Notes: a model not told the origin generated them from the sequence alone. DNA of 12,850 bases from a virus (IMGVR_UViG_2663762948_000002), one strand, 5' to 3'. Positions 1 to 12,720 are shown, numbered from the stretch's first letter. Numbers and translations: made by a program.

Positions 1-17
1 ACTCATTCTGAATGCCA

Positions 18-1214
18 TTATGCAAGCCTCACAATATAGTTAAATGCGATGTTTTTGACGGTGTTTTCCGCGTTACCAGCAGCGTTAACGGTGATGGTGT
101 GTCCATGTGAACCAATCGCAACGGAGTGCGTATGAGCACCAATAACGCGATCTTTTACTGGCGGGTTCGAGCTGTTCACCACAACGTTAAAACCAGCCTG
201 CTTAAGCTGGGCTATATCCGTCGTACTTGCGTTACTTGATTTTCTGGAATCCCCGGAAGCATCTGGATAAATATAAATTTCCCTCACTTTCCGGTAATCA
301 TTCCCATCATACAGCCAGAAGCGTTCTTTAATGATGCGGATCATATCCGGCGTATCGTAGGCATTGATGATTTCAGTTACCGCACATGGAAGCCCCAAAC
401 GCAGCACATGGACGATTCCCGCCATCTTTCCAACGTTAAAATCCATCCCAATATAAATCGGCTCCCCTGGCTGCTCCACTTCTTCGCAATTATTCAGTTT
501 CCGGTCAAACTGATGGTAAACAGTACCACTTGTCAGGTTAGTAAACTGTCCTCGAAGATAGGCTTTAATCAGCTCTGGAGGGTATGATTCAAGAAGCGAA
601 GGAATGTAATCTGCTGGCAGGTTCTTTTCATTATCGAAAGTAGATGCCTGCACCAGACCATACAGTGAGGCCAGCTCTGTTTTTTCACGCACGGCTTTAA
701 CAAACTGCTCGTAGACAAATTTGAATCCTTCCGGCGTGGTTGTAACGTCAATACCGTTGCGAAGTCCATCAATCTTATAACGCATACGTGCAATTATCTT
801 GCGCCACGCCGTTCTGGCTTTTTCCTTCGGCAAAATGTCCAGTTCATCCACCAACGCATTACCAATTTTGAAACCGACGATCGTTTGTGGCTTCTCCATC
901 GATCTGCAGATAGTGGTTCCCCGATACTGGCGTCCGTAATAAAAGTGAACCTCTTTATTTCCCTCATTAATTTTTACGTTCAATCCCCAGTCAGCAGCAA
1001 CTTCTTCCACTGTAGGGTAAAAAATATCGCGAATTTGGGGATACGTTGGCGCAAAATATCCCTGATTTATACCTGGATGCTCCCAAATCCCCTTGCATAT
1101 GCCGCCACACCCAACCCATGTTTTGCCCGAGCCAAAACCAGCAATATAGGCTTTAAATTTATGGGGCATTGAAAGAAATCGCGCCTGAGGCACATTAAGC
1201 GTCGGAGAGATCAT
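18..1214 (-). CDS. Phage terminase large subunit (TerL). ORF runs to 1223 (GTG); ATG at 1220 and 1214 are alternatives, and 1214 has the best spacing (8 nt) from an AAGGAG ribosome-binding site.
   Basis: Walker A-like P-loop AGFGSGKT near the N-terminus; about 400 aa; start overlaps the 3' end of the upstream small-terminase ORF by about 20 nt; sits directly downstream of the lysis cassette as in lambdoid late operons. Confidence 0.8.
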   Translation of the reverse strand: MISPTLNVPQARFLSMPHKFKAYIAGFGSGKTWVGCGGICKGIWEHPGINQGYFAPTYPQIRDIFYPTVEEVAADWGLNVKINEGNKEVHFYYGRQYRGTTICRSMEKPQTIVGFKIGNALVDELDILPKEKARTAWRKIIARMRYKIDGLRNGIDVTTTPEGFKFVYEQFVKAVREKTELASLYGLVQASTFDNEKNLPADYIPSLLESYPPELIKAYLRGQFTNLTSGTVYHQFDRKLNNCEEVEQPGEPIYIGMDFNVGKMAGIVHVLRLGLPCAVTEIINAYDTPDMIRIIKERFWLYDGNDYRKVREIYIYPDASGDSRKSSNASTTDIAQLKQAGFNVVVNSSNPPVKDRVIGAHTHSVAIGSHGHTITVNAAGNAENTVKNIAFNYIVRLA

Positions 1215-1860
1215 CTTCATCACTCCTTACTCTGGCATCAACCACATTAATATTGATCGCCACAGGCTGGGGATGTTCATTATCTTCCACCGTTTCGATC
1301 TCTTTGCGCAGCTTCTGGTTTTCCATTCTGCGCCGTTCAATTTCCAGTTCCTGTAGCCGTTTATCTGCACATAAAGCCCCGCCAGCAGAAAACAAACGCA
1401 ACAATTCACGCCGGGCGGCAGCCTTATCCTCCAGCAGGATCTCAACGCCGAATTTTCCGAATTTTGCCCCTGCATATAATTGCCGCGCATCCCCATCAAG
1501 CAGAGTGGTATCAGCCATATAAAGCTGTCCCGTTCCCTCACCGCAGCACTTCGGGCAGTCCGGATTGGGTATGGCGTTATCAACAAAGCCGAGGCCTCCA
1601 TATTCCGGTTCGGGTTTGCCATCTCTGGAAGCCTGCGCCGCTGCCTTGTCGAATTCTGCTATATCGCGCCACTGGTAGAGATGATTCTCGCCCCAGCAAT
1701 AACGGCAGTTAACACGGCGAAATTGTGCAAGCTGATTGGGGTCGGCCAGGACAATAGCCATCAACTGACTCACTAGTAAATCCAGGTCTGCGGTATAGCG
1801 TTTCTGGTACTGATTGCGGAAGTAGCTGATAGCGCGAAAAACCCTGGCATTTCTAAGCAT
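1195..1860 (-). CDS. Phage terminase small subunit (TerS), start uncertain. The ORF extends to a TTG at 1956 (253 aa); the first in-frame ATG is at 1860 (221 aa).
   Basis: Sits immediately upstream of TerL with overlapping stop and start; coiled-coil-like charged C-terminus; two Cys pairs (CRYC and CPKCC) suggest a zinc-ribbon-like element. The first 32 codons of the long form are low-complexity S/G/A-rich and neither candidate start has a good ribosome-binding site. Confidence 0.6.
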   Translation of the reverse strand: MLRNARVFRAISYFRNQYQKRYTADLDLLVSQLMAIVLADPNQLAQFRRVNCRYCWGENHLYQWRDIAEFDKAAAQASRDGKPEPEYGGLGFVDNAIPNPDCPKCCGEGTGQLYMADTTLLDGDARQLYAGAKFGKFGVEILLEDKAAARRELLRLFSAGGALCADKRLQELEIERRRMENQKLRKEIETVEDNEHPQPVAININVVDARVRSDEDDLSDA

Positions 1861-1962
1861 ACGACTGGCGTTGCTGTTAGCTGTCGCACCTTGCCCCTCA
1901 TAACCGGCTAAGTCAGAACTTTGTCCGGTCGCCCGTGAGTCAGAATAAAGGCGCAAAAATCA

Positions 1963-2754
1963 TCACGCATATTCCTCCTCCTCACCACCATGCATGATCT
2001 CCACCATGCGCTGCGTCATCCGGACAAATCCATTTTCAATAGCCTGCTGATAATCAATGATCACCAGCGCCGACTCCTCGAAAAAACACTGAATTTCAGA
2101 GGGGGCGTGAGCGTAATAGTCCGCAATTCTGCTGAAATTAAACACCGTGTGACGTTCTGCCGCACACAGGAGGAATTTCTCAATATCAGGCTCAAGGGAC
2201 GCCGAACGTATCCGGCTGATCAGCTCCTGAGTTTTCGTATCGTCGTACAGTTCACTGATATCCGGTTTACCGCCCGACGGCTCATAAACAGGCGTATCAA
2301 TTTTCGTCGTATACGGCTCCTCCTCATTTCCTGTACCGGGCAAAACATCCGTCAACAGTTCATCAATTTCTGTCGGGATGAAGCCTGTCAGGGAGACATC
2401 AAAATCAGCATTGATTAGGTCCGACAGCTCCATCCGCAACAGATCTTCATCCCAGCCAGCATTCATCGGCAGGCGATTATCTGCCAGGCGGTACGCCTTT
2501 TTCTGCTCATCCGTCAGGACAGACAGAACAATGACCGGAACAGAATCCATTTTGAGCATTTCAGCCGCCATAACACGACCGTGACCCGCAATAATTTCGC
2601 CCTTTTCGTCAATCAGCACCGGATTAGTCCAGCCGAATTGCTTAATACTTTCTACCAGTTGTGCCACCTGCTCAGGGCTGTGCGTCCTGGCGTTGTGCGC
2701 ATACGGTGACAATTCTTGTAATGGGCGATAGACTATCTTTAATTTCTCGCTCAT
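1963..2754 (-). CDS. ParB-like nuclease domain protein (ParB/Srx N-terminal domain, acidic C-terminal domain of unknown function).
   Basis: N-terminal region carries the ParB-type motif (IIAGHGRVMAA) within a roughly 90 aa ParB/Srx-like segment; ATG at 2752-2754 preceded by AAGG; located just upstream of the terminase genes, a common position for ParB-like nucleases in phages. Confidence 0.7.
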   Translation of the reverse strand: MSEKLKIVYRPLQELSPYAHNARTHSPEQVAQLVESIKQFGWTNPVLIDEKGEIIAGHGRVMAAEMLKMDSVPVIVLSVLTDEQKKAYRLADNRLPMNAGWDEDLLRMELSDLINADFDVSLTGFIPTEIDELLTDVLPGTGNEEEPYTTKIDTPVYEPSGGKPDISELYDDTKTQELISRIRSASLEPDIEKFLLCAAERHTVFNFSRIADYYAHAPSEIQCFFEESALVIIDYQQAIENGFVRMTQRMVEIMHGGEEEEYA

Positions 2755-2770
2755 ACAGCCTTGCTTTATG

Positions 2771-2805
2771 AATAAAACGCACCCCAGCAGCCAGTGCTAC
2801 TGGGG
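2771..2805 (-). terminator. Putative Rho-independent terminator downstream of the trkG-like gene.
   Basis: Inverted repeat CCCCAG / CTGGGG (plus 2782-2787 and 2800-2805) with a 12-nt loop that may pair further; on the minus strand the stem is followed by a U-rich run (TGCGTTTTATT). Confidence 0.45.
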
Positions 2806-2891
2806 ACGGAGGGGTTGCTGGTAAAGTTAGGTATTGGATCAATGAGTGAGTCAACATAATATTAAACTCACAATTATAAATCAGCCATATA

Positions 2892-4349
2892 TTAGGAGCG
2901 CCAAAAAAAACCTGAAAACAATATAATAACAGGATAAATTTCAAGGCGACCAAGAATCATAGCTATGCACATTAAACATTTTGCAATGTCATTAAGCACT
3001 CCGAATGACGATGCAGTAGCCCCAAAACCTAATCCCATATTATTAATACATGCAGCCACTGTTGCAAATGATGTAAGAAAATCATATCCCATACCATTTA
3101 ACACCAGTATAAAAAACACCGTGAAGAGAGTATAAAGAAAAAAGAAACTCCATACAGACCTCATTACACGATCTGTAACTATCTTCCCTCCTACATTTAC
3201 ACTCAACAACGCTCTGGGATGAGAAAGCTGATTTATCTCGTGTTTGCTTTGTTTGAAAAGTATAAGAAATCGAAGTGACTTAATTCCACCACAAGTTGAA
3301 CCTATACATCCCCCAAAGAAACTTGACAACAGCAAAAACACTATCGTGTGCGTGGGCCAACTTGCATAATCCTGCGTAGCTAAACCATTATCAGTGAGCA
3401 TGGAGCTGGCAAGAAAAAACGAATGAATAAAACTTCCATGCAAGTCATACATACCTATATGCCAGACCTGGAAAGAGGTAACAATGATCACCCCTAAGGC
3501 TATTAACAGAAAGAAACGAAGTTCAATATCTCTGATTAAAGGTTTTATCGTTTTCCTGCTAATAACAATATACCAAAGAGTGAAGTTGAAAGCCGATAGC
3601 AGGGAAAAAGAACCAGCCACCAGCTCAACCAAATAGTTATTAAAATATCCGATACTCTCGCTATGAGTTGAGAAACCACCAAGCGAAACTGTGGAAATCC
3701 CGTGACAAATAGCATCAAACAAAGGCATTCCTGCAAGTCTATAACAGACAATACAAGCAATACCTAATAAAGAATAAGTTATCCACAGTGTCCGTGACGT
3801 ATCGGCCAGGCGGGGAGTGAGTTTGTCATCCTTAAATGGCCCCGGCATTTCTGACTGATAAAGCTTTGCACCACCAATACCCAATAATGGCAATACAGCA
3901 ACCGCCAGAACAATAACTCCTAAACCACCTATAAAATTTAACTGTGACCGATAGTACAAATATGCCCGAGGTAATGAACTAACATCATCAATTACAGTTG
4001 CTCCTGTTGTTGTTATTCCAGAAACCCCTTCAAACAGAGCATCAATGAACGTTAAATTAAGTTCTGAGTCAATCCATAAAGGGAATGCACTAATAACAGA
4101 AAACAAAATCCAAAACATTACAATTATAATAAACCCATCACGGGTACGTAATTGAATGCCAGATTTCTTAGTTGTATACCACGCTCCGCCACCAATGCAA
4201 AAAAATATAACGAAAGTTATAAAGAAAACGAACAGGCTTTTTTCTTTATAAAACAATGCTACAACCATTGGTGGCAACATTGAAAGACTATAGAGCCAAA
4301 CCAGGAACCCACACATATGAGTAACAACTCTTACATGAGATGTATTCAT
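2892..4349 (-). CDS. trkG: Trk-system potassium uptake protein TrkG/TrkH family (485 aa from the ATG at 4347-4349; the ORF extends 6 codons further to a TTG).
   Basis: Polytopic membrane protein of TrkH/TrkG length and character; from memory it closely matches E. coli TrkG (begins MNTSHVRVVTHMCGFLVW). The gene is visibly AT-richer than the flanking phage genes and sits between the lysis and packaging genes, as trkG does in the Rac prophage. Confidence 0.9.
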   Translation of the reverse strand: MNTSHVRVVTHMCGFLVWLYSLSMLPPMVVALFYKEKSLFVFFITFVIFFCIGGGAWYTTKKSGIQLRTRDGFIIIVMFWILFSVISAFPLWIDSELNLTFIDALFEGVSGITTTGATVIDDVSSLPRAYLYYRSQLNFIGGLGVIVLAVAVLPLLGIGGAKLYQSEMPGPFKDDKLTPRLADTSRTLWITYSLLGIACIVCYRLAGMPLFDAICHGISTVSLGGFSTHSESIGYFNNYLVELVAGSFSLLSAFNFTLWYIVISRKTIKPLIRDIELRFFLLIALGVIIVTSFQVWHIGMYDLHGSFIHSFFLASSMLTDNGLATQDYASWPTHTIVFLLLSSFFGGCIGSTCGGIKSLRFLILFKQSKHEINQLSHPRALLSVNVGGKIVTDRVMRSVWSFFFLYTLFTVFFILVLNGMGYDFLTSFATVAACINNMGLGFGATASSFGVLNDIAKCLMCIAMILGRLEIYPVIILFSGFFWRS

Positions 4350-4486
4350 ATCTAAATATTCTTTCAATTATAACCACCTTGCTGCAATATTATGATTATA
4401 CTGTATAAAATTTAACTCCTCTTAGATCTTACTTCACTGTTCCTTATGAAACAATCATCAAAATGAATCATATTGTAGTTAAGATT

Positions 4487-4951
4487 TTACTTTAAACACT
4501 GCTCGGTTATGTATTGCTGAGCACCTTCAAGTTGGGCCTGCATCATTACCAGTCGTTCCCGGAGGGTGAAATAATCCCGTTCAGCGGTGTCTGCCAGTCG
4601 GGGGGAGGCTGCATTATCCACGCCGGAGGCGGTGGTGGCTTCACGCACTGACTGACAGACTGCTTTGATGTGCAACCGACGACGACCAGCGGCAACATCA
4701 TCACGCAGAACATCATTTTCAGCTTTCGCATCAGCTAACTCCTTCGTGTATTTTGCATCGAGCGCAGCAACATCACGCTGACGCATCTGCATGTCAGTAA
4801 TTGCCGCGTTCGCCAGCTTCAGTTCTCTGGCATTTTTGTCGCGCTGTTCTTTGTAGGCGATGGCGTTATCACGGTAATGATTAACACCCCATGACAGGCA
4901 GACGACGATGCAGATAACCAGAGCGGAGATAATCGCGGTTACTCTGTTCAT
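4487..4951 (-). CDS. Rz: Rz-type i-spanin (inner-membrane spanin), 154 aa starting at the ATG at 4949-4951.
   Basis: Near-identical by recall to lambda Rz ([15 protein letters not shown]..., [53 protein letters not shown]); N-terminal TM segment; its ATG overlaps the endolysin TGA stop (ATGA overlap) as in lambda R/Rz. Confidence 0.92.
4546..4731 (-). CDS. Rz1: Rz1-type o-spanin (outer-membrane lipoprotein) embedded in the +1 frame inside Rz.
   Basis: 61-aa ORF entirely within Rz; signal peptide with lipobox VVGC; proline-rich (PPPPP, PPP) mature region; near-identical by recall to lambda Rz1. Confidence 0.9.
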
Positions 4952-5445
4952 TGCTGACCCCACAAACAGATTTCACGCTCAATCTCACGACGAGTCATGA
5001 GACCTTTCCATTGCTTACCGCCAGCATATGTCCAGCGACGTAGCTGATCACATGCGCCTTTGATATCGCCCTGGTTTATTTTGCGAAGAAGCGTCGATGT
5101 TCTGAAATTGCCAGCACCCACGTTGTAAACGAATGAGTAAAGAGCGCCGCGCGTTGTTTCCGGTATATCGACTTTGATGTACGGGTTAATTTGTCTGGCG
5201 ACCGTGGCAAGGTCTTTATTCAAGAGTGTTTTGCATTCTGCTTTGGTATACGTTTTACCGAGCATGATGTCTTTTCCTGTATGCCCGTGACATACAGTCC
5301 ATACACCAACAATATCTTTGTATGGTATGTAGCTGACACCTTCCAGACCATCGTTACCACTTGGGCCAGTGATTAACACTGATGCTATAGCAATTGCTCC
5401 GCCACCAATAGCAGCAGCAACGACTTTTCGTAATGATGGAGGCAT
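4948..5445 (-). CDS. SAR (signal-arrest-release) endolysin, phage lysozyme of the P21 R / E. coli RrrD type.
   Basis: 165 aa; N-terminal Gly/Ala-rich weakly hydrophobic SAR segment ([18 protein letters not shown]) followed by a lysozyme-like domain; by recall nearly identical to the DLP12 lysozyme RrrD; its ATG overlaps the holin stop (TAATG). Confidence 0.9.
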
Positions 5446-5660
5446 TATTCACCTCTCGCAGCCTTGCGCTTATCTTCTTTAATCTTGAAATAAAGGTTTG
5501 TCAGGTACGTCAGCAGGCCAAATACCAGACTACCCAGCACACCGATTGCAGCCCACTGTGACGGAGTTACTCTATCGAGCAACTGTAAAAACCAGTAGCC
5601 AGCACTGCCTGCGGAGGTGCCGTAGGCAATGCCTGTTGAAATTTTGTCCATGGATTTCAT
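5445..5660 (-). CDS. Pinholin (phage 21 S-type class II holin), 71 aa with a dual-start motif (Met1-Lys-Ser-Met4). The ORF extends upstream to 5717 but the supported start is the ATG at 5658-5660.
   Basis: Two TM segments (the first Gly/Ala-rich and SAR-like), charged C-terminus [13 protein letters not shown]; MKSMDK dual start typical of S21 antiholin/holin; strong ribosome-binding site GGAGGTGAGG 4 nt upstream of the ATG at 5660; immediately upstream of the SAR endolysin. Confidence 0.88.
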
Positions 5661-5761
5661 AGCCTCACCTCCGCACGGAACGGATGGCATAGTTATTATG
5701 TGTAGGCTTTCAGACACATCAATCAGAGCCTTAATTGATATATATGCTGGAGACGATGCAA

Positions 5762-5786
5762 TATAAAAAGCTCGCCGTAGCGAGCT
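5762..5786 (-). terminator. Rho-independent terminator between the lipoprotein cassette and the holin gene (minus strand).
   Basis: Perfect 7-bp stem AGCTCGC / GCGAGCT (plus 5769-5775 and 5780-5786) with a 4-nt loop; on the minus strand the stem is followed by TTTTTAT. Confidence 0.6.
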
Positions 5787-5911
5787 AATAAAATGTATTT
5801 CTCTGATATTATGTTTATTTGTATTAGCTCAGACTTGACATCACAGGTTTCGTATATAGAACATCATCAAATCTGTCAGTTTGCTATGAATGAGATATAG
5901 TAATTGAAGAG

Positions 5912-6307
5912 CTAACCTCGCATGTCAAAGCCAGATTTCTGAAAATCTCTGTAGACTTCCGGATTGTTGAAGGCCGGAAATTTGGCTTTATGAGCTGCGG
6001 ACTTTATCGCTTCGCAATAGGCTTTATCACCGTTACTGGTAGATATTTTTAACGCCGTGCCATCCTGAGAGAATTCCATATGCAACCTGCATTTTTTCCC
6101 TTTCCAGTTATGCGGCTCATCAAGTTTGGCATTAATTGCAGCTCTGATTCCCCGCGCTTGCGCCCCCCATTCATCCTGATCATCCCAGCGTCCTGAACTG
6201 CAACTACCTGTAGCAGTAGTTTTGTGGCAATCTGAAGGGTGTAAAGGTGTGCATCCCGCAACAAAACCGACCCAAAAAGTCAACATAACGATTTTCTTTA
6301 ATCCCAC
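5912..6307 (-). CDS. Predicted outer-membrane lipoprotein with a TolA domain III-like C-terminal domain (131 aa, GTG start).
   Basis: Signal peptide MGLKKIVMLTFWVGFVAGC with lipobox VAGC and Thr at +2; GAGGAG ribosome-binding site 6 nt upstream of the GTG; C-terminal roughly 80 aa align with the TolA C-terminal domain as I recall it (GK.C.L ... DG ... C ... AK.P ... P.VY..F) and with the downstream paralog. Confidence 0.75.
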   Translation of the reverse strand: MGLKKIVMLTFWVGFVAGCTPLHPSDCHKTTATGSCSSGRWDDQDEWGAQARGIRAAINAKLDEPHNWKGKKCRLHMEFSQDGTALKISTSNGDKAYCEAIKSAAHKAKFPAFNNPEVYRDFQKSGFDMRG

Positions 6308-6457
6308 TTCTTGCTCCTCAATCCATTAAAATCTCAGCAATAGTAGTTGTTACGTCCGCCACTGGCTCAGAGCTGACTATCCGCTAAATTTAGCTCAGTG
6401 CCGTAGCTGTGTCAGAACAAACCTAAGCCGAAACCGTTTATTACAAAACAATAAATA

Positions 6458-6886
6458 TCAGGGTTTAAAATCCAGCACCCCATTTTGAAATACTTTATAT
6501 ACTTCCGGCGAAGGGGGGGCAGGTATATCAGCATTCTTTATCGCATTCATCGCTTCACGACATAAATCGAGGTCTCCACTTTCTCTTTTAACCTCCAGTA
6601 GAAGGCCATTCGGGGCCATATGCATTCTCAGTGTACACTCTTTTCCTGAATACTTACTCGCATCCCCGAACTGTTTTTCGATGGCGCTCTTGATTTGATG
6701 GGCATACAGACGGATATCCTCACTAACATCAGAAGTACGTTCAGATGAACTCACATACTGTGTCTCTATTGCTTTATCGGAGTAATATGATGTACGGTCA
6801 TGATAATTTGTCGATACAGCATCAGTGCACCCGATAATAATCCCACTAATAATCAACGTAAGAATTGATGCGCTACGAAAACCCAT
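6458..6886 (-). CDS. Predicted outer-membrane lipoprotein with a TolA domain III-like C-terminal domain (142 aa), paralog of 5912-6307.
   Basis: Signal peptide MGFRSASILTLIISGIIIGC with lipobox IIGC and Thr at +2; GAGGA ribosome-binding site upstream of the ATG at 6884-6886; C-terminus (IKSAIEKQFGDASKYSGKECTLRMHMAPNGLLLEVK...DLCREAMNAIKNADIPAPPSPEVYKVFQNGVLDFKP) strongly resembles E. coli TolA domain III, which by recall ends ...KPPSQAVYEVFKNAPLDFKP. Confidence 0.8.
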   Translation of the reverse strand: MGFRSASILTLIISGIIIGCTDAVSTNYHDRTSYYSDKAIETQYVSSSERTSDVSEDIRLYAHQIKSAIEKQFGDASKYSGKECTLRMHMAPNGLLLEVKRESGDLDLCREAMNAIKNADIPAPPSPEVYKVFQNGVLDFKP

Positions 6887-6916
6887 TTTTCCTCACATAT
6901 GTCATATAGTAAAGGA

Positions 6917-6945
6917 TTATATATACCGTTGTTTTGGACGCTCAA
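6917..6945 (-). promoter_or_regulatory. Putative sigma70 promoter for the lipoprotein cassette.
   Basis: On the minus strand: -35 TTGAGC (plus 6940-6945), 17-bp spacer, -10 TATAAT (plus 6917-6922); predicted start about 25 nt upstream of the 6886 ATG. Confidence 0.45.
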
Positions 6946-7477
6946 ACAGCGAATCAGATCAAATAAAACGCACATTTGTTAACATTTACACAAAGTCTGC
7001 GTGGGATATTCTGAAAGAATATCCATAATGTGGAGAGAATCTATTGAAGTGCATGGTGCCGGGTGCCTCCCGGTGAACAAAATGTTCGTGATACCTGTCG
7101 GCGACAGAAAAGGTTAATGGTATCACCCCACCGCACAGGGGGATTCACCATGCAGGAGTTTTCTTAGCAAACTCACTGCGCGCCCGGCAACTCCCAACCA
7201 CATAAAATGCGGAGTTTGTGGTATTTATGCATATAACTCGCAGGAATTATCTTAAAAAACTGATGTCGATCCGGATTAAAAAGAAGCAGGTCATCATCAG
7301 ATGACTGGAAAAAAGGAAAACAAAAAATACTCATCATACAGTTTTGATTGCAGGGATGAGCCTGCTATGCACAATATGCAGAATATAAGCAAGATAAAAA
7401 TATGCAGGCATATTATTTCGGATTTTGTTATTAACACAACCTTTTTAATAATCATTTGGCATACAATAAACCAGCCC

Positions 7478-7503
7478 AAAAAGAACCGCCTAAACAGGCG
7501 GTT
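7478..7503 (-). terminator. Rho-independent terminator (minus strand) between the Q-proximal region and the lipoprotein cassette.
   Basis: Stem AACCGCC / GGCGGTT (plus 7484-7490 and 7497-7503) with a 6-nt loop; on the minus strand it is followed by CTTTTTGGG. Confidence 0.6.
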
Positions 7504-7823
7504 GGTCAATACAAAGGATGCTTCGTCTTTATTATAGTAATCTGAGGCGTCGGGTGTCTTGTATCAGACAACATATTGTCCCGCTAAACAGCGAATTACA
7601 AACCACCCTGCAATGATCTCTCATCTCATTTTATATGAGTTGACGACATCAGGATAACGCATCATCAGCCCCTGCCAAGAAATATCAAAACTCCCGCCAG
7701 CAATGTGTTATCACAATATTGTAAAAAAAACACAGCACCGAAACTATAACTGGTCTCTGTTATAATTTGGAGCAGAAAGACCAGTTGCCCAACTAGCAGC
7801 ATTCTCCCCTGCTTTCCTGACGT

Positions 7824-7850
7824 AAAAAAACCGCATTAAGCGGTTTTTTT
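7824..7850. terminator. Bidirectional intrinsic terminator about 80 nt downstream of the putative Q gene; candidate tR'-like terminator of the late leader.
   Basis: Perfect palindromic hairpin AAAAAAACCGC-ATTAA-GCGGTTTTTTT: a GC core flanked by an A7 and a T7 run, so a U-tract follows the stem on either strand. Confidence 0.65.
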
Positions 7851-7930
7851 ACGATGTCCATGTCTGCAATCCGCCTCGCGATACAGCTTTGCGAAGCATA
7901 GCAAAATTGAAGCAGTTTATACGTAAGAAA

Positions 7931-8473
7931 TCAAGCCATTTTCTCAGCAAATGATTCACGCATGGGAATATATAGGGCATACTCAGCAACAGCTAACCAA
8001 TTAGCAATCCGTTTTTCGCATGTGCTAAAACACCACTCTGGGTGTGCATCATTTAGCAATTCAGCCATTTTGCGCTTAGTCATCCCCCGCCCTTCATAGC
8101 GTTGCCGGAGAATGCAAATCAATCCTGGATGCTCTGCCAGCACCTCACTTATGACTCGATCAATACATAACGCCTCTGCATCAGTACAATGCGCCAGCCA
8201 GCTCTTTTGCTTGCCGTTGATCATCTCTCGCAAAAACGCTTCCAGCTCAGCTTTCTCTATTCCCGCTTTTTTCATTCTGCGCAGGGCTTCATTAATGGCT
8301 GTTTTCGTCAGTTTTTTGGATGCCAACAACTGATTGAACATATTCCCTGACCTGCCACCGCCAATATACGACCAGCGCCCCCACATACGTAGTTTTCCCT
8401 GAATCCAGACACTTTCCAGCGTGGTGAGGCGAAGGTGTTCTCCGCTTTTTCCTGTATTCGTTGGGTAAATCAT
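7931..8473 (-). CDS. Putative late-gene antiterminator Q (Q21/Q82-like family), 180 aa.
   Basis: Occupies the Q slot, last gene of the nin-type operon and immediately upstream of terminators and the lysis cassette; start overlaps the stop of the upstream YbcO-like gene; N-terminal W..WGRW motif and a C-terminal helix-turn-helix-like segment resemble non-lambda Q proteins. Family assignment is from memory, not a search. Confidence 0.55.
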   Translation of the reverse strand: MIYPTNTGKSGEHLRLTTLESVWIQGKLRMWGRWSYIGGGRSGNMFNQLLASKKLTKTAINEALRRMKKAGIEKAELEAFLREMINGKQKSWLAHCTDAEALCIDRVISEVLAEHPGLICILRQRYEGRGMTKRKMAELLNDAHPEWCFSTCEKRIANWLAVAEYALYIPMRESFAEKMA

Positions 8474-8760
8474 AAATGACCTTTCTTTCTCCAGATTTCT
8501 TGTGTGCGAAAAACCCCTTCAGCATGCATCAGGCGCAATTCTTCTTTGGTGTAATCGCTGGTTTTTACCCGCCCGTCGATTAGATCGTGGCATGAGCTAC
8601 AGGCTATCGCCGCCTGCATATCGTGTGGTTTTGTCGCTGTTCCGCACGTCCCCGCCAGCCTGTAATGCGCCAGCACAGAGGTTTCGGGATTGTGATTGCA
8701 GTAGCCAGGGATTCTGATCTGGCACATCTGGCCTTTAGCCGCTTTACGTAAATTCACCAT
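8470..8760 (-). CDS. YbcO-like nin-region protein (Cys-rich putative nuclease), 96 aa.
   Basis: Aligns by recall with E. coli DLP12 YbcO (LRKAA.G..CQ.RIPG.CN.NPETSVLAH.RL.G.CGT.TKP.D...IACS.CHD.ID.R); conserved Cys/His pattern; translationally coupled to its neighbours on both sides. Confidence 0.7.
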   Translation of the reverse strand: MVNLRKAAKGQMCQIRIPGYCNHNPETSVLAHYRLAGTCGTATKPHDMQAAIACSSCHDLIDGRVKTSDYTKEELRLMHAEGVFRTQEIWRKKGHL

Positions 8761-9359
8761 TACGCAAACTCCAGTAGTTGTGCGGCCACATTTTCAACTT
8801 CCTCATGAGAGGAGAATTTACGAAACAGAATCCAGTTCCACAGCACATTCAGTACAGATTTATAAACCTGCTGAAACTCGACTTCGTCCATATTCGCAAA
8901 AGCGATGGATTTTGCCCGACGCCCACGGCTACCGTCCGGATAAATATGCTCGGTGTAAAATCCGGCCTGAATGGTTACCCACTCGCGGAAAGCCTCAAAC
9001 GACTTTAGCAACGCCGTATCCCGGGTTCTACGAGTCGCAACGGTGTTAAGGTATTGCTCTGCGGCATCACTCAGGGCTGGCGTGTGTTCCCGACCAACTG
9101 ATTCGCACAGGTAATCAACGAAACCAGACAGCAGTTCTCGTTCGCGAGGCGTGATCGCCCCACCGACCGGAGTCCAGTAATCGAATCCCAGTTGCAGGAG
9201 TTTGAAAAAACGCTTGTGGAATGCGTAGTTACGCACACGCTTAAAGTCTGCGTGTATCCACTCACCTATTTTGATTTGATGCAGAAAATCGCAACTCTCC
9301 GGCGTCGCCGGGAGAAGTAAACCAGAAGAAGTTTGTTTGACCAGTTGTATATGCGCCAT
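8760..9359 (-). CDS. Lambdoid nin-region protein of unknown function (199 aa); possibly the DUF1367-type family, unverified.
   Basis: Intact 199-aa ORF with its stop overlapping the YbcO-like start; position upstream of YbcO/Q as in nin regions; no motif I can assign with confidence. Confidence 0.55.
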   Translation of the reverse strand: MAHIQLVKQTSSGLLLPATPESCDFLHQIKIGEWIHADFKRVRNYAFHKRFFKLLQLGFDYWTPVGGAITPRERELLSGFVDYLCESVGREHTPALSDAAEQYLNTVATRRTRDTALLKSFEAFREWVTIQAGFYTEHIYPDGSRGRRAKSIAFANMDEVEFQQVYKSVLNVLWNWILFRKFSSHEEVENVAAQLLEFA

Positions 9360-9417
9360 TTCTCAATCTCTCGATGGCGCAGCGCAGCAGATGCCAGTTG
9401 TTCAGGCTGACGAATAA

Positions 9418-9445
9418 AGTATAAATAAACTGGCTATGGTGTAAA
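9418..9445 (-). promoter_or_regulatory. Possible sigma70 promoter upstream of the nin-Q operon.
   Basis: On the minus strand: -35 TTTACA (plus 9440-9445), 16-bp spacer, -10 TATACT (plus 9418-9423), about 60-75 nt upstream of the 9359 ATG. Confidence 0.3.
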
Positions 9446-9639
9446 GCCCCACATAGCATGAACAAACACTACATATCAAATAGCTGGTACAAGGATAGAA
9501 ATACGACATTTATTATTAAAAACGATTAGATAAATTACATTTTAATGTTATGCAAAAGTTCTTTTTTATCATAACATTTCAATAAAAGCATTACAGATGC
9601 AATCATCCCGTCATCATCAATTATTTAAGGTGGTTAAAC

Positions 9640-9726
9640 ATGGAAAATAACAAGTTCGCACATCTCGCTCCTTTTTTATCCGTAATCCTTTTCGCTTGTT
9701 GTTTTATATGGGCATTATTTTTATAA
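9640..9726 (+). CDS. Candidate small hydrophobic protein (28 aa, MENNKFAHLAPFLSVILFACCFIWALFL); possible small membrane protein or type I toxin-like peptide.
   Basis: ATG at 9640 preceded by ribosome-binding site AAGGTGG (9628-9634, 5-nt spacer); a single predicted TM helix; lies in an otherwise ORF-free AT-rich region. Too short for statistical support. Confidence 0.3.
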   Translation: MENNKFAHLAPFLSVILFACCFIWALFL

Positions 9727-10117
9727 AGTAGCCACATGATAAGTTGCTGGAATCATATTTCCCACTCAAGTCATTAACATTTGATAAGATATATCTAAAA
9801 GGACGCCTTTACATTATTTATGTGTATATAATTTATTTATATACACAGTAAAGGTATCCTGGGAAAATATTTATCGTTAAAAAATACATCATAAATAATC
9901 AAGCTGAAATTTCAGAACACAACTAATACACACAATAAGGTTCAGTAACAATAATCTATGTGGACTACATCGAGATTTTTTGATTAAACTTTAATAACTT
10001 ATTCCTAACACACAGAATGCATAAACTAAAAGTAAAACAAATAGTTATACGAAAAACAACCATATTTATTATATCTTCTCCTCTAATCAACATATCAATT
10101 ATGTGTTTCATAACAGC

Positions 10118-10157
10118 TTGACATAACCCTCAAAAACACGCATTTATAATGCATGTT
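10118..10157 (+). promoter_or_regulatory. Promoter of the yeaR-like gene with an overlapping NsrR-type operator (11-1-11 inverted repeat).
   Basis: AACACGCATTT-A-TAATGCATGTT at 10135-10157 closely matches the NsrR consensus as I recall it; TATAAT at 10145-10150 lies inside the operator; TTGACA at 10118-10123, although the 21-bp spacing to that -10 is non-canonical. Confidence 0.5.
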
Positions 10158-10172: not shown

Positions 10173-10511
10173 ATGACACACAAGAGAATTCCTAAAGATT
10201 GGGTAATCAAACGCTCAACTCCGTTCTTCACAAAAGAGAACGTACCTTCAGCGTTATTAACACATCATAATACAGCAGCAGGTGTTTTTGGGCAGTTGTG
10301 CGTAATGGAAGGCACTGTAACATATTATGGTTTTACTGATGAGAATGCTACTGAACCGGAGATAAAAGTAGTCATTAATGCTGGCGCTTTTGCAACAAGC
10401 CCACCACAATACTGGCACCGTGTTGAACTAAGCGATGATGCTCAGTTTAATATTAACTTTTGGGTCGCTCCAGACTTCTCGGGCGAAAAAGTCTATAGCA
10501 CCAAAAAATAG
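10173..10511 (+). CDS. YeaR-like protein (DUF1971 family), 112 aa from the ATG at 10173. The ORF opens at 10149 but the ribosome-binding site supports 10173.
   Basis: Ribosome-binding site GAGGAGGTGG 3-4 nt before the ATG at 10173; the protein shares motifs with E. coli YeaR by recall (RSTPF, SVM.G.V.Y.G..DE...EP, FNI.F.VAP); the gene is AT-rich. Confidence 0.75.
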   Translation: MTHKRIPKDWVIKRSTPFFTKENVPSALLTHHNTAAGVFGQLCVMEGTVTYYGFTDENATEPEIKVVINAGAFATSPPQYWHRVELSDDAQFNINFWVAPDFSGEKVYSTKK

Positions 10512-11234: not shown

Positions 11235-11771
11235 ATGCCATTTGTTATTTATGTGTTTACTATCAGTGCCTTTGCGCTCGGACTCGCGGAATTTGTCCCC
11301 ATTGGGCTGACAGACGTTATGGCTCAGGGGTTGTGTGTGGGTGTGGAGCAGACCGGGGCAGCGGTTACAACCTATGCACTGGGGGCAACGTTCGCGGCAC
11401 CCGTACTGTCTGCGCTGACAGCAAGCTGGAGCCGGAAAAATGTAATGCTTACAACTGCCGTTGTGTTTACTGCCGGTAGTCTGGCGGCCGCGTTTGCAGC
11501 CACATTACCTCAGCTCCTGTTAGCGCGGTTCATTGCTGGTCTGGGACACGGCCTGTTTCTGGCTGCGGCATCCAGTACCGCAGCTCGTCTTGCTGGACCG
11601 GGTAAAGCAGGCAGAGCGGTGGCTGTGGTATTTGGTGGCTTTACTCTGGCGATGGCAATCGGCGTACCGCTGAGTACATGGTTGCCCGTGGAGACATTGG
11701 CACGAATGCAGATTATGTATGGAAACTGCAGGCCACTCTGGGTGCGTTGGGAATACGGAATGATTACGTGA
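11235..11771 (+). pseudogene. Truncated MFS-family transporter gene (N-terminal roughly 155 aa of an expected roughly 400 aa protein).
   Basis: ATG at 11235 with AGGAG ribosome-binding site; N-terminal half resembles MFS transporters (about 5 TM helices, loop motif LTASWSRKN); the reading frame ends after a non-MFS-like tail, only 67 nt before the next gene, with no continuation in another frame. Confidence 0.6.
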
Positions 11772-11838
11772 GTGAACTGGCCCTTGCTCTGCATGAGGCT
11801 CCCTGTAACGATAAACTTCATCAGCGAGGCGCTTCACT

Positions 11839-12720
11839 ATGAGCCATCTGAGCCATCTGCGAACGTTTCTTGAGGCCTATCGCTCTGGCTCCTTTTCAAA
11901 GGCGGCAGAACTACTGGGCATCACTCAGCCCGCGGCGTCACAGCATATCCAGTCTCTTGAGACTCTGGTTGGTAAGCGTCTGTTTATCAGGCAGGCCAGA
12001 GGCGTGACGGCAACCGAAGCTGCGGATGAGCTTGCCCGCTCAGTTTCACCCTTCATTGATGGTCTGGAAGAAAAGCTGTCCTCTTTCCGGTCAGGCTCTG
12101 TACGCGGGGGAACAATTAATCTGGCAGGACCGCCAGATTTTATTCATTCCCGGCTTGGGACAGTAATGGCTCCACTAATGAAGGAGGGGTATCGCCTACG
12201 CTTTCATACCGGCAATAAGCAACGTATTTATTCCCTTTTGCATGACGGGAGCGCCGATCTCGCTGTTACCGCATCTATGCCTGATGACCGTCTGTACGGC
12301 TATGCACATCTACTGACTGAACGCATGCTCCTTGTTCATGCTCCCGCCATGTCAGAGATCATCGGATCAGAACCTGGTGCTGAAACGCTTGCCTCATTAC
12401 CGCTGATTGCTTATGACGAAGAGTTGCCACTGATTAGAGCGCTCTGGGCCTCCATGTTTCAGAGAGCCCCTGAGATGCAGGCTACATTCACCATTCCGGA
12501 TTTACGTATTATCCGCGACTTGGTCTGTGACGGCCACGGGTGGACAGTGCTGCCGGATTATCACTGTGACAATGACCTGAAAAGTGGTCGCCTGATTTCA
12601 GTGACACCTGCAGACCTCGCTCCGACTAATCATCTTTATCTGGTCTGGAACAAAAGGACGGCTAATAACAGCCGAACCGCCTATGTTCGGGATTACATTC
12701 TTAAAACGTTTCCGCGTTGA
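11839..12720 (+). CDS. LysR-family transcriptional regulator (293 aa).
   Basis: N-terminal helix-turn-helix typical of LysR regulators (LSHLRTFLEAYRSGSFSKAAELLGITQPAASQHIQSLE) followed by a substrate-binding domain of typical length; GC-rich coding sequence. Confidence 0.85.
   Translation: MSHLSHLRTFLEAYRSGSFSKAAELLGITQPAASQHIQSLETLVGKRLFIRQARGVTATEAADELARSVSPFIDGLEEKLSSFRSGSVRGGTINLAGPPDFIHSRLGTVMAPLMKEGYRLRFHTGNKQRIYSLLHDGSADLAVTASMPDDRLYGYAHLLTERMLLVHAPAMSEIIGSEPGAETLASLPLIAYDEELPLIRALWASMFQRAPEMQATFTIPDLRIIRDLVCDGHGWTVLPDYHCDNDLKSGRLISVTPADLAPTNHLYLVWNKRTANNSRTAYVRDYILKTFPR

Follow-up and report, generated by a model that had tools for sequence, protein, structure and literature searches.

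A late region of the Rac prophage of Escherichia coli with a complete lysis cassette, trkG and truncated terminase genes

Rac is a lambdoid prophage of Escherichia coli that is integrated at ttcA. In this study, we analysed a 12,850-nucleotide viral sequence, IMGVR_UViG_2663762948_000002 (hereafter, the window), and in particular its block 18-5660, which carries lysis genes, the K+ transporter gene trkG, a gene for a ParB-like protein and genes for the terminase proteins TerS and TerL. On alignment, this block is the late region of Rac, the same element as the Rac prophage of strain K-12. We consider it highly probable (roughly 85%) that the window is a Rac late region that descends from a full-length ancestor of about 54 kb at ttcA, that it has undergone three deletions, and that its decay was independent of that in K-12. 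Rac is well known, and it has been published that it is a mosaic whose content varies among strains, with recE and trkG as conserved genes (PMC5700373); to this extent the finding is already known.

In a blastn comparison with the Rac prophage of K-12 MG1655, window 2501-4931 was collinear with the ynaK'-trkG-rzoR/rzpR' segment and 99.67% identical to it over 2,431 nt. The similarity to the K-12 trkG region that an earlier, sequence-only reading of this DNA had proposed was thus found. A second match, window 1-147, consists of the 3' end of stfR and the start of tfaR, which lie at the late end of the element; K-12 and strain C21 (C21 2483604-2483747) both match window 1-144 at 100%. The annotated order in K-12 is rzpR (a pseudogene), rzoR, trkG, ynaK, ydaY, a tape-measure fragment, lomR::IS5, stfR and tfaR, which agrees with the layout given in that reading, namely trkG amid decayed lysis genes and remnants of packaging and structural genes. 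All genes in window 1-9359 are on the minus strand. The open reading frame (ORF) list, Pfam and PHROGs support the transcription order NinB-like, YbcO, Q-like, STnc100, two TolA-like genes, holin, endolysin, Rz/Rz1, trkG, ParB-like, TerS-like and TerL-like, and the ORF list and Pfam confirm the order from the pinholin to TerL as it had first been read.

We searched 5,426 complete E. coli genomes and used as full-length reference the Rac prophage of strain C21 (NZ_CP052877, 2481074-2535082). At least 80% of the window length was matched in 215 genomes, always in at least three pieces, and the closest relatives (99.8-100% identity) are integrated at ttcA. The retained DNA of the window is 99.8-100% identical to the C21 prophage and collinear with it except for three gaps. 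Phage Rac-SA53 (KU052037) and an 8-kb record named 'Escherichia phage Rac' were rejected as close relatives, since each showed only 83-86% identity over small parts.

The C21 prophage lies between ttcA/intR and ynaM/uspF, and none of its morphogenesis genes is flagged as a pseudogene. When the ends of K-12 Rac are mapped on C21, the element measures about 54.0 kb, compared with 23 kb in K-12. Its early genes (xisR, rcbA, ralR, recT, recE, racC, ydaE, kilR, sieB and ydaF) are followed by the immunity and replication region, a cargo island (BCCT, DUF2254, LysR, GGCT, MFS and DUF1971) and then the window-type block. Beyond the ParB-like gene come a TAGT gene, a 69-aa ORF, TerS (364 aa), TerL (433 aa), the portal, a minor head protein and a P22-type capsid, and then tail genes, ydaY, the tape measure, minor tail genes, J, lom, stfR, tfaR and pinR. 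Full-length Rac, as found in C21, SE11 and H10407 and in the records ON470595 and ON032529, shares with the window the gene order from the NinB-like gene to TerL and the identity of 99.8-100% over retained DNA. It differs in keeping TAGT, the 69-aa ORF, complete TerS and TerL, portal, capsid, tail genes, tape measure, J, lom and the whole of stfR, all of which the window has lost.

The history that we propose would start from such a prophage, a full-length Rac of about 54 kb at ttcA. Its late operon would have run through a Q-like gene, two TolA-like genes, the S21 pinholin, the signal-anchor-release (SAR) endolysin, Rz/Rz1, trkG, the ParB-like gene, TAGT, TerS and TerL and continued with portal, head and tail genes, J, lom, stfR and tfaR. 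In this operon trkG would be a gene of low guanine-plus-cytosine (GC) content, with promoter-like and terminator-like signals of its own, that was inserted between Rz and ParB. The source of the window would then have undergone three deletions by illegitimate recombination, each at a 2-bp microhomology: about 21.6 kb between codon 357 of TerL and the last 41 codons of stfR (deletion 1), 1,442 bp from about codon 20 of TAGT to codon 126 of TerS (deletion 2), and 1,296 bp of the cargo MFS/GGCT pair (deletion 3). The microhomologies read from the sequence are TA, TA and TG, respectively, and junctions 1 and 2 lie within longer imperfect repeats.

At junction 1, C21 position 2483747 is joined to 2505333, with the loss of the portal, capsid, tail, tape-measure, J and lom genes and most of stfR. 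The junction fuses residues 1-357 of TerL in frame to the last 41 residues of StfR. The resulting chimeric ORF (18-1214, minus strand, 398 aa) contains the TerL ATPase domain, part of the nuclease domain and the StfR C-terminus; it ends in IGAHTHSVAIGSHGHTITVNAAGNAENTVKNIAFNYIVRLA followed by the stop codon, as StfR of C21 does. The stfR stop codon is window 18-20, so position 18, where the sequence-only reading had its block begin, falls on it. The TerL part is 100% identical to C21 TerL over 357 residues and lacks the last 76. Pfam finds Terminase_6N (24-238) and Terminase_6C (255-417) in the intact 433-aa TerL, compared with Terminase_6N only in the window protein. An in-frame join of this kind has a one-in-three chance, and there is no reason to suppose that the fusion would have a function. 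Junction 2 removes TAGT beyond about codon 20, the 69-codon ORF and TerS codons 1-126. The TerS remnant has lost its native start codon and its N-terminal domain, and translation from the TAGT start upstream (1970) would run in another frame; residue 16 of the window ORF corresponds to TerS residue 127. Intact TerS matches phrog_51. The ORF list gives extents of 1195-1956 for the TerS-like and 18-1223 for the TerL-like frame. Junction 3, which lies beyond 18-5660, cuts the cargo MFS transporter to 178 aa and removes nearly all of the GGCT (gamma-glutamylcyclotransferase) gene. From this gene loss we infer that packaging and virion assembly would be impossible: because TerS is decapitated, the TerL nuclease domain is cut and the structural genes are gone, neither DNA packaging nor a particle is to be expected.

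Three points weigh against the proposed history. First, a scan for promoters and terminators near trkG gave counts that were not above those of shuffled sequences (16 vs 14.8 and 7 vs 4.3); one promoter-like and one terminator-like site are correctly placed around the gene, in a scan without enrichment. Second, we infer the integration site, the state of the early region and the sequence to the left of position 1 from relatives of the window. Third, three private deletions within 12.9 kb are unusual, and they could mean that the sequence was engineered, evolved in the laboratory or mis-assembled.

The third point deserves closer weighing. If the deletions were not natural, an ordinary full-length Rac would have been altered in an engineered or laboratory-evolved strain, by mis-assembly or by editing of the sequence. 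Such an origin would fit the privacy of the junctions. In the genome collection, window 1-142 is nowhere contiguous with 143 onward, and no genome covers at least 80% of window 1760-2060 in one place (junction 2) or at least 80% of window 11400-12000 (junction 3). The 42-mer across junction 1 is absent from the GTDB representative genomes and the JGI metagenomes, and the 45-mer across junction 2 from the GTDB representative genomes; an exact look-up among 153 billion gene positions returned neither the TerL-StfR fusion, with three alternative starts, nor the 178-aa MFS product. Outside the junctions, moreover, the identity to an ordinary isolate reaches 100.0%. However, a microhomology of 2 bp is present at every junction, with longer imperfect repeats at two of them, as in spontaneous illegitimate recombination, and three random joins would, as we estimate, all show 2 bp or more with a probability of about 0.004. 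Natural strains commonly carry independent Rac deletions, as the K-12 type (about 340 genomes), strain ET729 and published work (PMC5700373) show, and clean internal deletions in unique sequence are not a normal product of short-read mis-assembly. An artefactual or laboratory origin is therefore distinctly unlikely. Spontaneous deletion is the better explanation, given the pattern of microhomology and how prevalent other deletion variants of Rac are. The deletions are probably recent, since full-length copies are 99.8-100% identical to the DNA that the window retains and since its junctions are private to it.

The sequence-only reading had taken the block for an undegraded, functional or recently functional Rac-type phage with apparently intact genes, whose head and tail genes would lie beyond position 1. 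All ORFs in 18-5660 are indeed open, with Pfam terminase domains in both terminase frames; full-length prophages are 99.9-100% identical to the DNA that remains, so that any decay is recent; and holin, endolysin, Rz, Rz1, trkG and ParB are intact and full length. Compared with the rzpR'/rzoR remnants and the 87-aa YnaK stub of K-12, the complete lysis cassette and the full ParB gene do make the block the less degraded counterpart in these parts. The terminase genes contradict the rest, for they carry the damage that had been thought absent: TerL stops at codon 357, without its last 76 residues and fused to the tail of StfR, and TerS is without residues 1-126 and its start codon. In addition, window 1-18 is already tfaR, so that the morphogenesis genes have been deleted and do not simply lie upstream. 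Because the approximately 21.6 kb that held them is gone, the sequence to the left of position 1 must, by comparison with full-length Rac, continue into tfaR and not into head genes. We thus regard a functional phage as very improbable. It is likewise very improbable that the block belongs to another lambdoid prophage (DLP12-, Qin- or phage-21-like) that gained trkG by recombination. The lysis genes do carry the DLP12 names essD/rrrD/rzpD, many other lambdoid phages have lysis genes about 97% identical to them, and matches over at least 80% of the query occur in 2,653 genomes. Apart from its three gaps, however, the window is collinear at 99.8-100% with the ttcA prophage, which has intR, xisR, ralR, recET, racC, kilR and sieB towards one end and stfR, tfaR and pinR towards its other end, and its Rz-trkG-ParB stretch is the one that is 99.67% identical to K-12 Rac.

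Our reading of the window as a decayed Rac also implies a comparison with the decay of Rac in K-12 MG1655 (b1345-b1375, 23 kb, ttcA). Besides the 2,431-nt Rz'-Rz1-trkG-ParB' match, the two share an identical TrkG and an identical stfR 3' end and tfaR start. K-12 Rac is without the start of Rz, ParB residues from about 85 to 263 and the whole of the holin, endolysin, Q, NinB-like, YbcO and TolA-like genes, whereas ydaY, a tape-measure fragment, lomR and a complete stfR survive there but not in the window. Mapped on C21, the first K-12 loss extends from within ydaW to about 7-9 codons into Rz and takes away the cargo, NinB-like, YbcO, Q, TolA-like, holin and endolysin genes. The second (11.6 kb) runs from about ParB codon 84 to ydaY and removes TAGT, TerS, TerL, portal, head and tail-tube genes; the third (8.4 kb) runs from within the tape measure to lom, with an IS5 in lomR in addition. 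Of these, two junctions were searched in the complete genomes, ydaW/Rz and ynaK/ydaY, and they were found in 338 and 348, respectively. No K-12 breakpoint coincides with a breakpoint of the window. Judged by these breakpoints, the same ancestor gave rise to the window through yet another independent course of decay, which left more lysis and nin genes and more of ParB than in K-12 but fewer tail genes. In strain ET729 (NZ_CP100927.1, about 2653419-2653575), the 5' end of ParB/TAGT coincides with an annotated host specificity protein J; here, it would appear, a further independent deletion in Rac has joined the ParB/TAGT region to the tail-tip gene.

The lysis cassette of the window is complete and of the phage-21 type. 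The pinholin is identical to essD of C21 and fits the S21 family, whose holins have two transmembrane domains and a dual start; its M1/M4 starts can be read from the translation. The endolysin differs from RrrD (PDB 4zpu) in 3 amino acids over all 165 residues (E-value 9e-111) and aligns end to end with the phage 21 lysozyme R21 (3hde; E-value 3e-110), residues 1-30 with the SAR segment included; the triad E35, D44 and T50 was read straight from the sequence. Rz is identical to that of C21, compared with K-12 rzpR, which lacks the first 7-9 codons or so, the start codon among them, and Rz1 has one amino-acid difference from K-12 RzoR. With the phage 21 and DLP12 cassettes the window shares the S21 holin family, the RrrD/R21 endolysin and Rz1 inside Rz; the difference is that trkG follows here and not packaging genes directly, and otherwise nothing functional can be distinguished. 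If late transcription were turned on, the intact Q, pinholin, SAR endolysin and spanins could still bring about lysis.

TrkG of the window is identical to K-12 TrkG at 485 of 485 residues, and trkG is found in 1,551 of the 5,426 genomes, almost always at 99% identity or more. Its GC content is 38.1%, in comparison with 48-49% in the flanks, and that of the upstream spacer is 25.5%. trkG has been described as a low-GC foreign gene in Rac that encodes in K-12 a functional Na+-dependent K+ transporter and is partly repressed by H-NS (PMC9898762). A trkG-free 'empty site' between Rz and ParB was looked for in the genome collection: no Rz 3' end lies within 800 bp of this ParB gene, and no place was covered to at least 80%. 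In the phage collection, ParB matches of at least 99% occur only in Rac-type records with trkG, and trkG-free phages hold no close homologue. The composition and the promoter-like and terminator-like sites would suit an autonomous moron. Because the scans were unenriched and no empty site was found, the label of a moron for trkG, which would make it cargo of the prophage, rests on base composition and the published view.

The ParB-like protein differs from that of C21 by one amino acid, and K-12 YnaK (87 aa) corresponds to its first 84 residues or so. Many phage DNA methyltransferases begin with a region homologous to the N-terminal domain of the ParB-like protein. In full-length Rac, the TAGT ('TET-associated') gene sits between the ParB-like gene and TerS, with no TET/JBP gene in sight; the C21 product (310 aa) matches PF20691 (E-value 7.6e-35) and phrog_842, 'beta-glucosyl-HMC-alpha-glucosyltransferase'. 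The ParB-like and TAGT genes may form a DNA-modification module in a lambdoid phage. A literature search for TAGT together with ParB returned nothing specific.

The stretch from ParB to TerS-TerL is present in 757 of the complete genomes. The GenBank 'phage' records with the block (ON470595 and relatives, and ON032529), which are listed in one preprint, carry chromosomal flanks and are predicted prophages, not isolated virions. Near-identical matches in the phage collection (the vB_EcoS-...R records and Salmonella phage SPF_0923) were likewise rejected as virions with trkG: they include chromosomal genes such as ttcA, dbpA, uspF and ompN at their flanks and are in-silico prophages. A literature search found no paper on SPF_0923 and nothing specific on a described intact Rac with trkG and terminase. 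It is conceivable that the Rac elements of about 54 kb, present in about one in seven complete E. coli genomes, are viable temperate phages that spread trkG by lysogenic conversion, with the ParB-like and TAGT DNA-modification module by the terminase, and also that the source of the window is a very recent derivative in which selection favoured the loss of genes for packaging and virions but the retention of Q, trkG and the lysis cassette, which would make it a domesticated element, 'lysis-competent but virion-dead'. As a whole, we regard this proposal as unlikely.

The features of the window are collected in Table 1. The Q-like, YbcO and NinB-like genes (7931-9359) are the upstream part of the same late/nin region and are as long as their counterparts in C21. 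The holin, endolysin, Rz, Rz1, TrkG and ParB also keep their C21 lengths with 0-1 amino-acid differences, as does every other gene from ParB to LysR that the junctions spare. No tRNA genes were found in the window.

Table 1. Features of the 12,850-nucleotide window; positions are counted from its first letter.
Feature	Position	Strand	Remarks
tfaR, first 18 nt	1..18	-	tail-fibre assembly gene; ATG overlaps stfR stop codon
stfR 3' end, last 41 codons and stop	18..144	-	C-terminus of fusion ORF
Deletion junction 1	143..144		2-bp 'TA' microhomology; about 21.6 kb lost vs full-length Rac
Truncated TerL, codons 1-357 of 433	143..1214	-	ATPase domain kept, nuclease domain cut
Truncated TerS, codons 127-364 of 364	1195..1910	-	Terminase_2 match
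Deletion junction 2	1909..1910		2-bp 'TA' within imperfect CCGG[C]TA[A]GTC repeat; 1,442 bp lost
TAGT-family glycosyltransferase remnant, about 20 codons	1911..1970	-	out of frame with TerS remainder; ATG at 1970
ParB/Srx-like protein, 263 aa, full length	1963..2754	-	PF02195 ParB_N; phrog_620, E-value 6e-90
Terminator-like hairpin downstream of trkG	2782..2805	-	10-bp stem, 7 G-C pairs, T-rich tail; consensus match only
trkG, Trk-family K+ transporter, 485 aa	2892..4349	-	PF02386 TrkH, E-value 5e-145, covering 40-483
Promoter-like site upstream of trkG	4467..4496	-	TTTAAA-18-TATGAT; consensus match only
Rz i-spanin, 154 aa, intact	4487..4951	-	PF03245, E-value 3.7e-53
Rz1 o-spanin lipoprotein, 61 aa	4546..4731	-	PF06085, E-value 2e-19; embedded in Rz, other frame
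SAR endolysin, 165 aa, R21/RrrD type	4948..5445	-	PF00959
S21-type pinholin, 71 aa, Met1/Met4 dual start	5445..5660	-	PF04971 'Bacteriophage P21 holin S', E-value 2e-35
Two TolA-C-terminal-domain lipoprotein genes	5912-6286 and 6458-6886	-	PF06519, E-values 1e-14 and 2e-23
STnc100 small RNA family match	6997..7183	-	Rfam RF02076, 86.6 bits vs gathering score 47
Q-like antiterminator, DUF1133	7931-8473	-	Pfam, PHROGs
YbcO nuclease	8470-8760	-	Pfam, PHROGs
NinB-like DUF1367	8760-9359	-	Pfam, PHROGs
Deletion junction 3	11683..11684		2-bp 'TG' microhomology; 1,296 bp lost

The two TolA-like genes are paralogous, lipoprotein-like and members of phrog_5772 (function unknown), and they occupy a classic moron slot between Q and holin. 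They could plausibly encode a periplasmic mimic of TolA domain III that interferes with Tol-dependent colicins or filamentous phages, which is speculation; a literature search for TolA-like prophage proteins gave nothing specific. The STnc100 match lies between the Q-like gene, on its upstream side, and the TolA-like genes, and it is the only Rfam match in the window. At the border between the NinB-like gene and the cargo island, window 9400-10150 has a GC content of 27-29% and no listed ORF of at least 50 aa. The island itself (DUF1971, 10173-10511; truncated MFS, 11235-11771; LysR, 11839-12720) occurs in complete genomes about 308 times over, one genome each. The corresponding slot of ON470595 has other cargo, an FtsH-like gene and an S8 peptidase, so that the slot is a variable cargo hotspot of Rac.

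In conclusion, the order of lysis genes, trkG, ParB and terminase is an ordinary one, already present in the complete Rac-type prophages of hundreds of public genomes. The window had been thought useful, as a relative of the ancestral phage, for reconstructing the domestication of cargo genes; full-length Rac copies are common in public genomes, and to these the window adds nothing as regards the ancestor. The right material for the domestication of trkG is the full-length copies, such as those of C21, SE11 and H10407, and even these show no trkG-free 'empty site' in E. coli. The value of the present finding is corrective, in that a terminase domain in an ORF does not mean an intact terminase. 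The window would thus stand as a third, independent example of Rac decay and not as a picture of the Rac ancestor.

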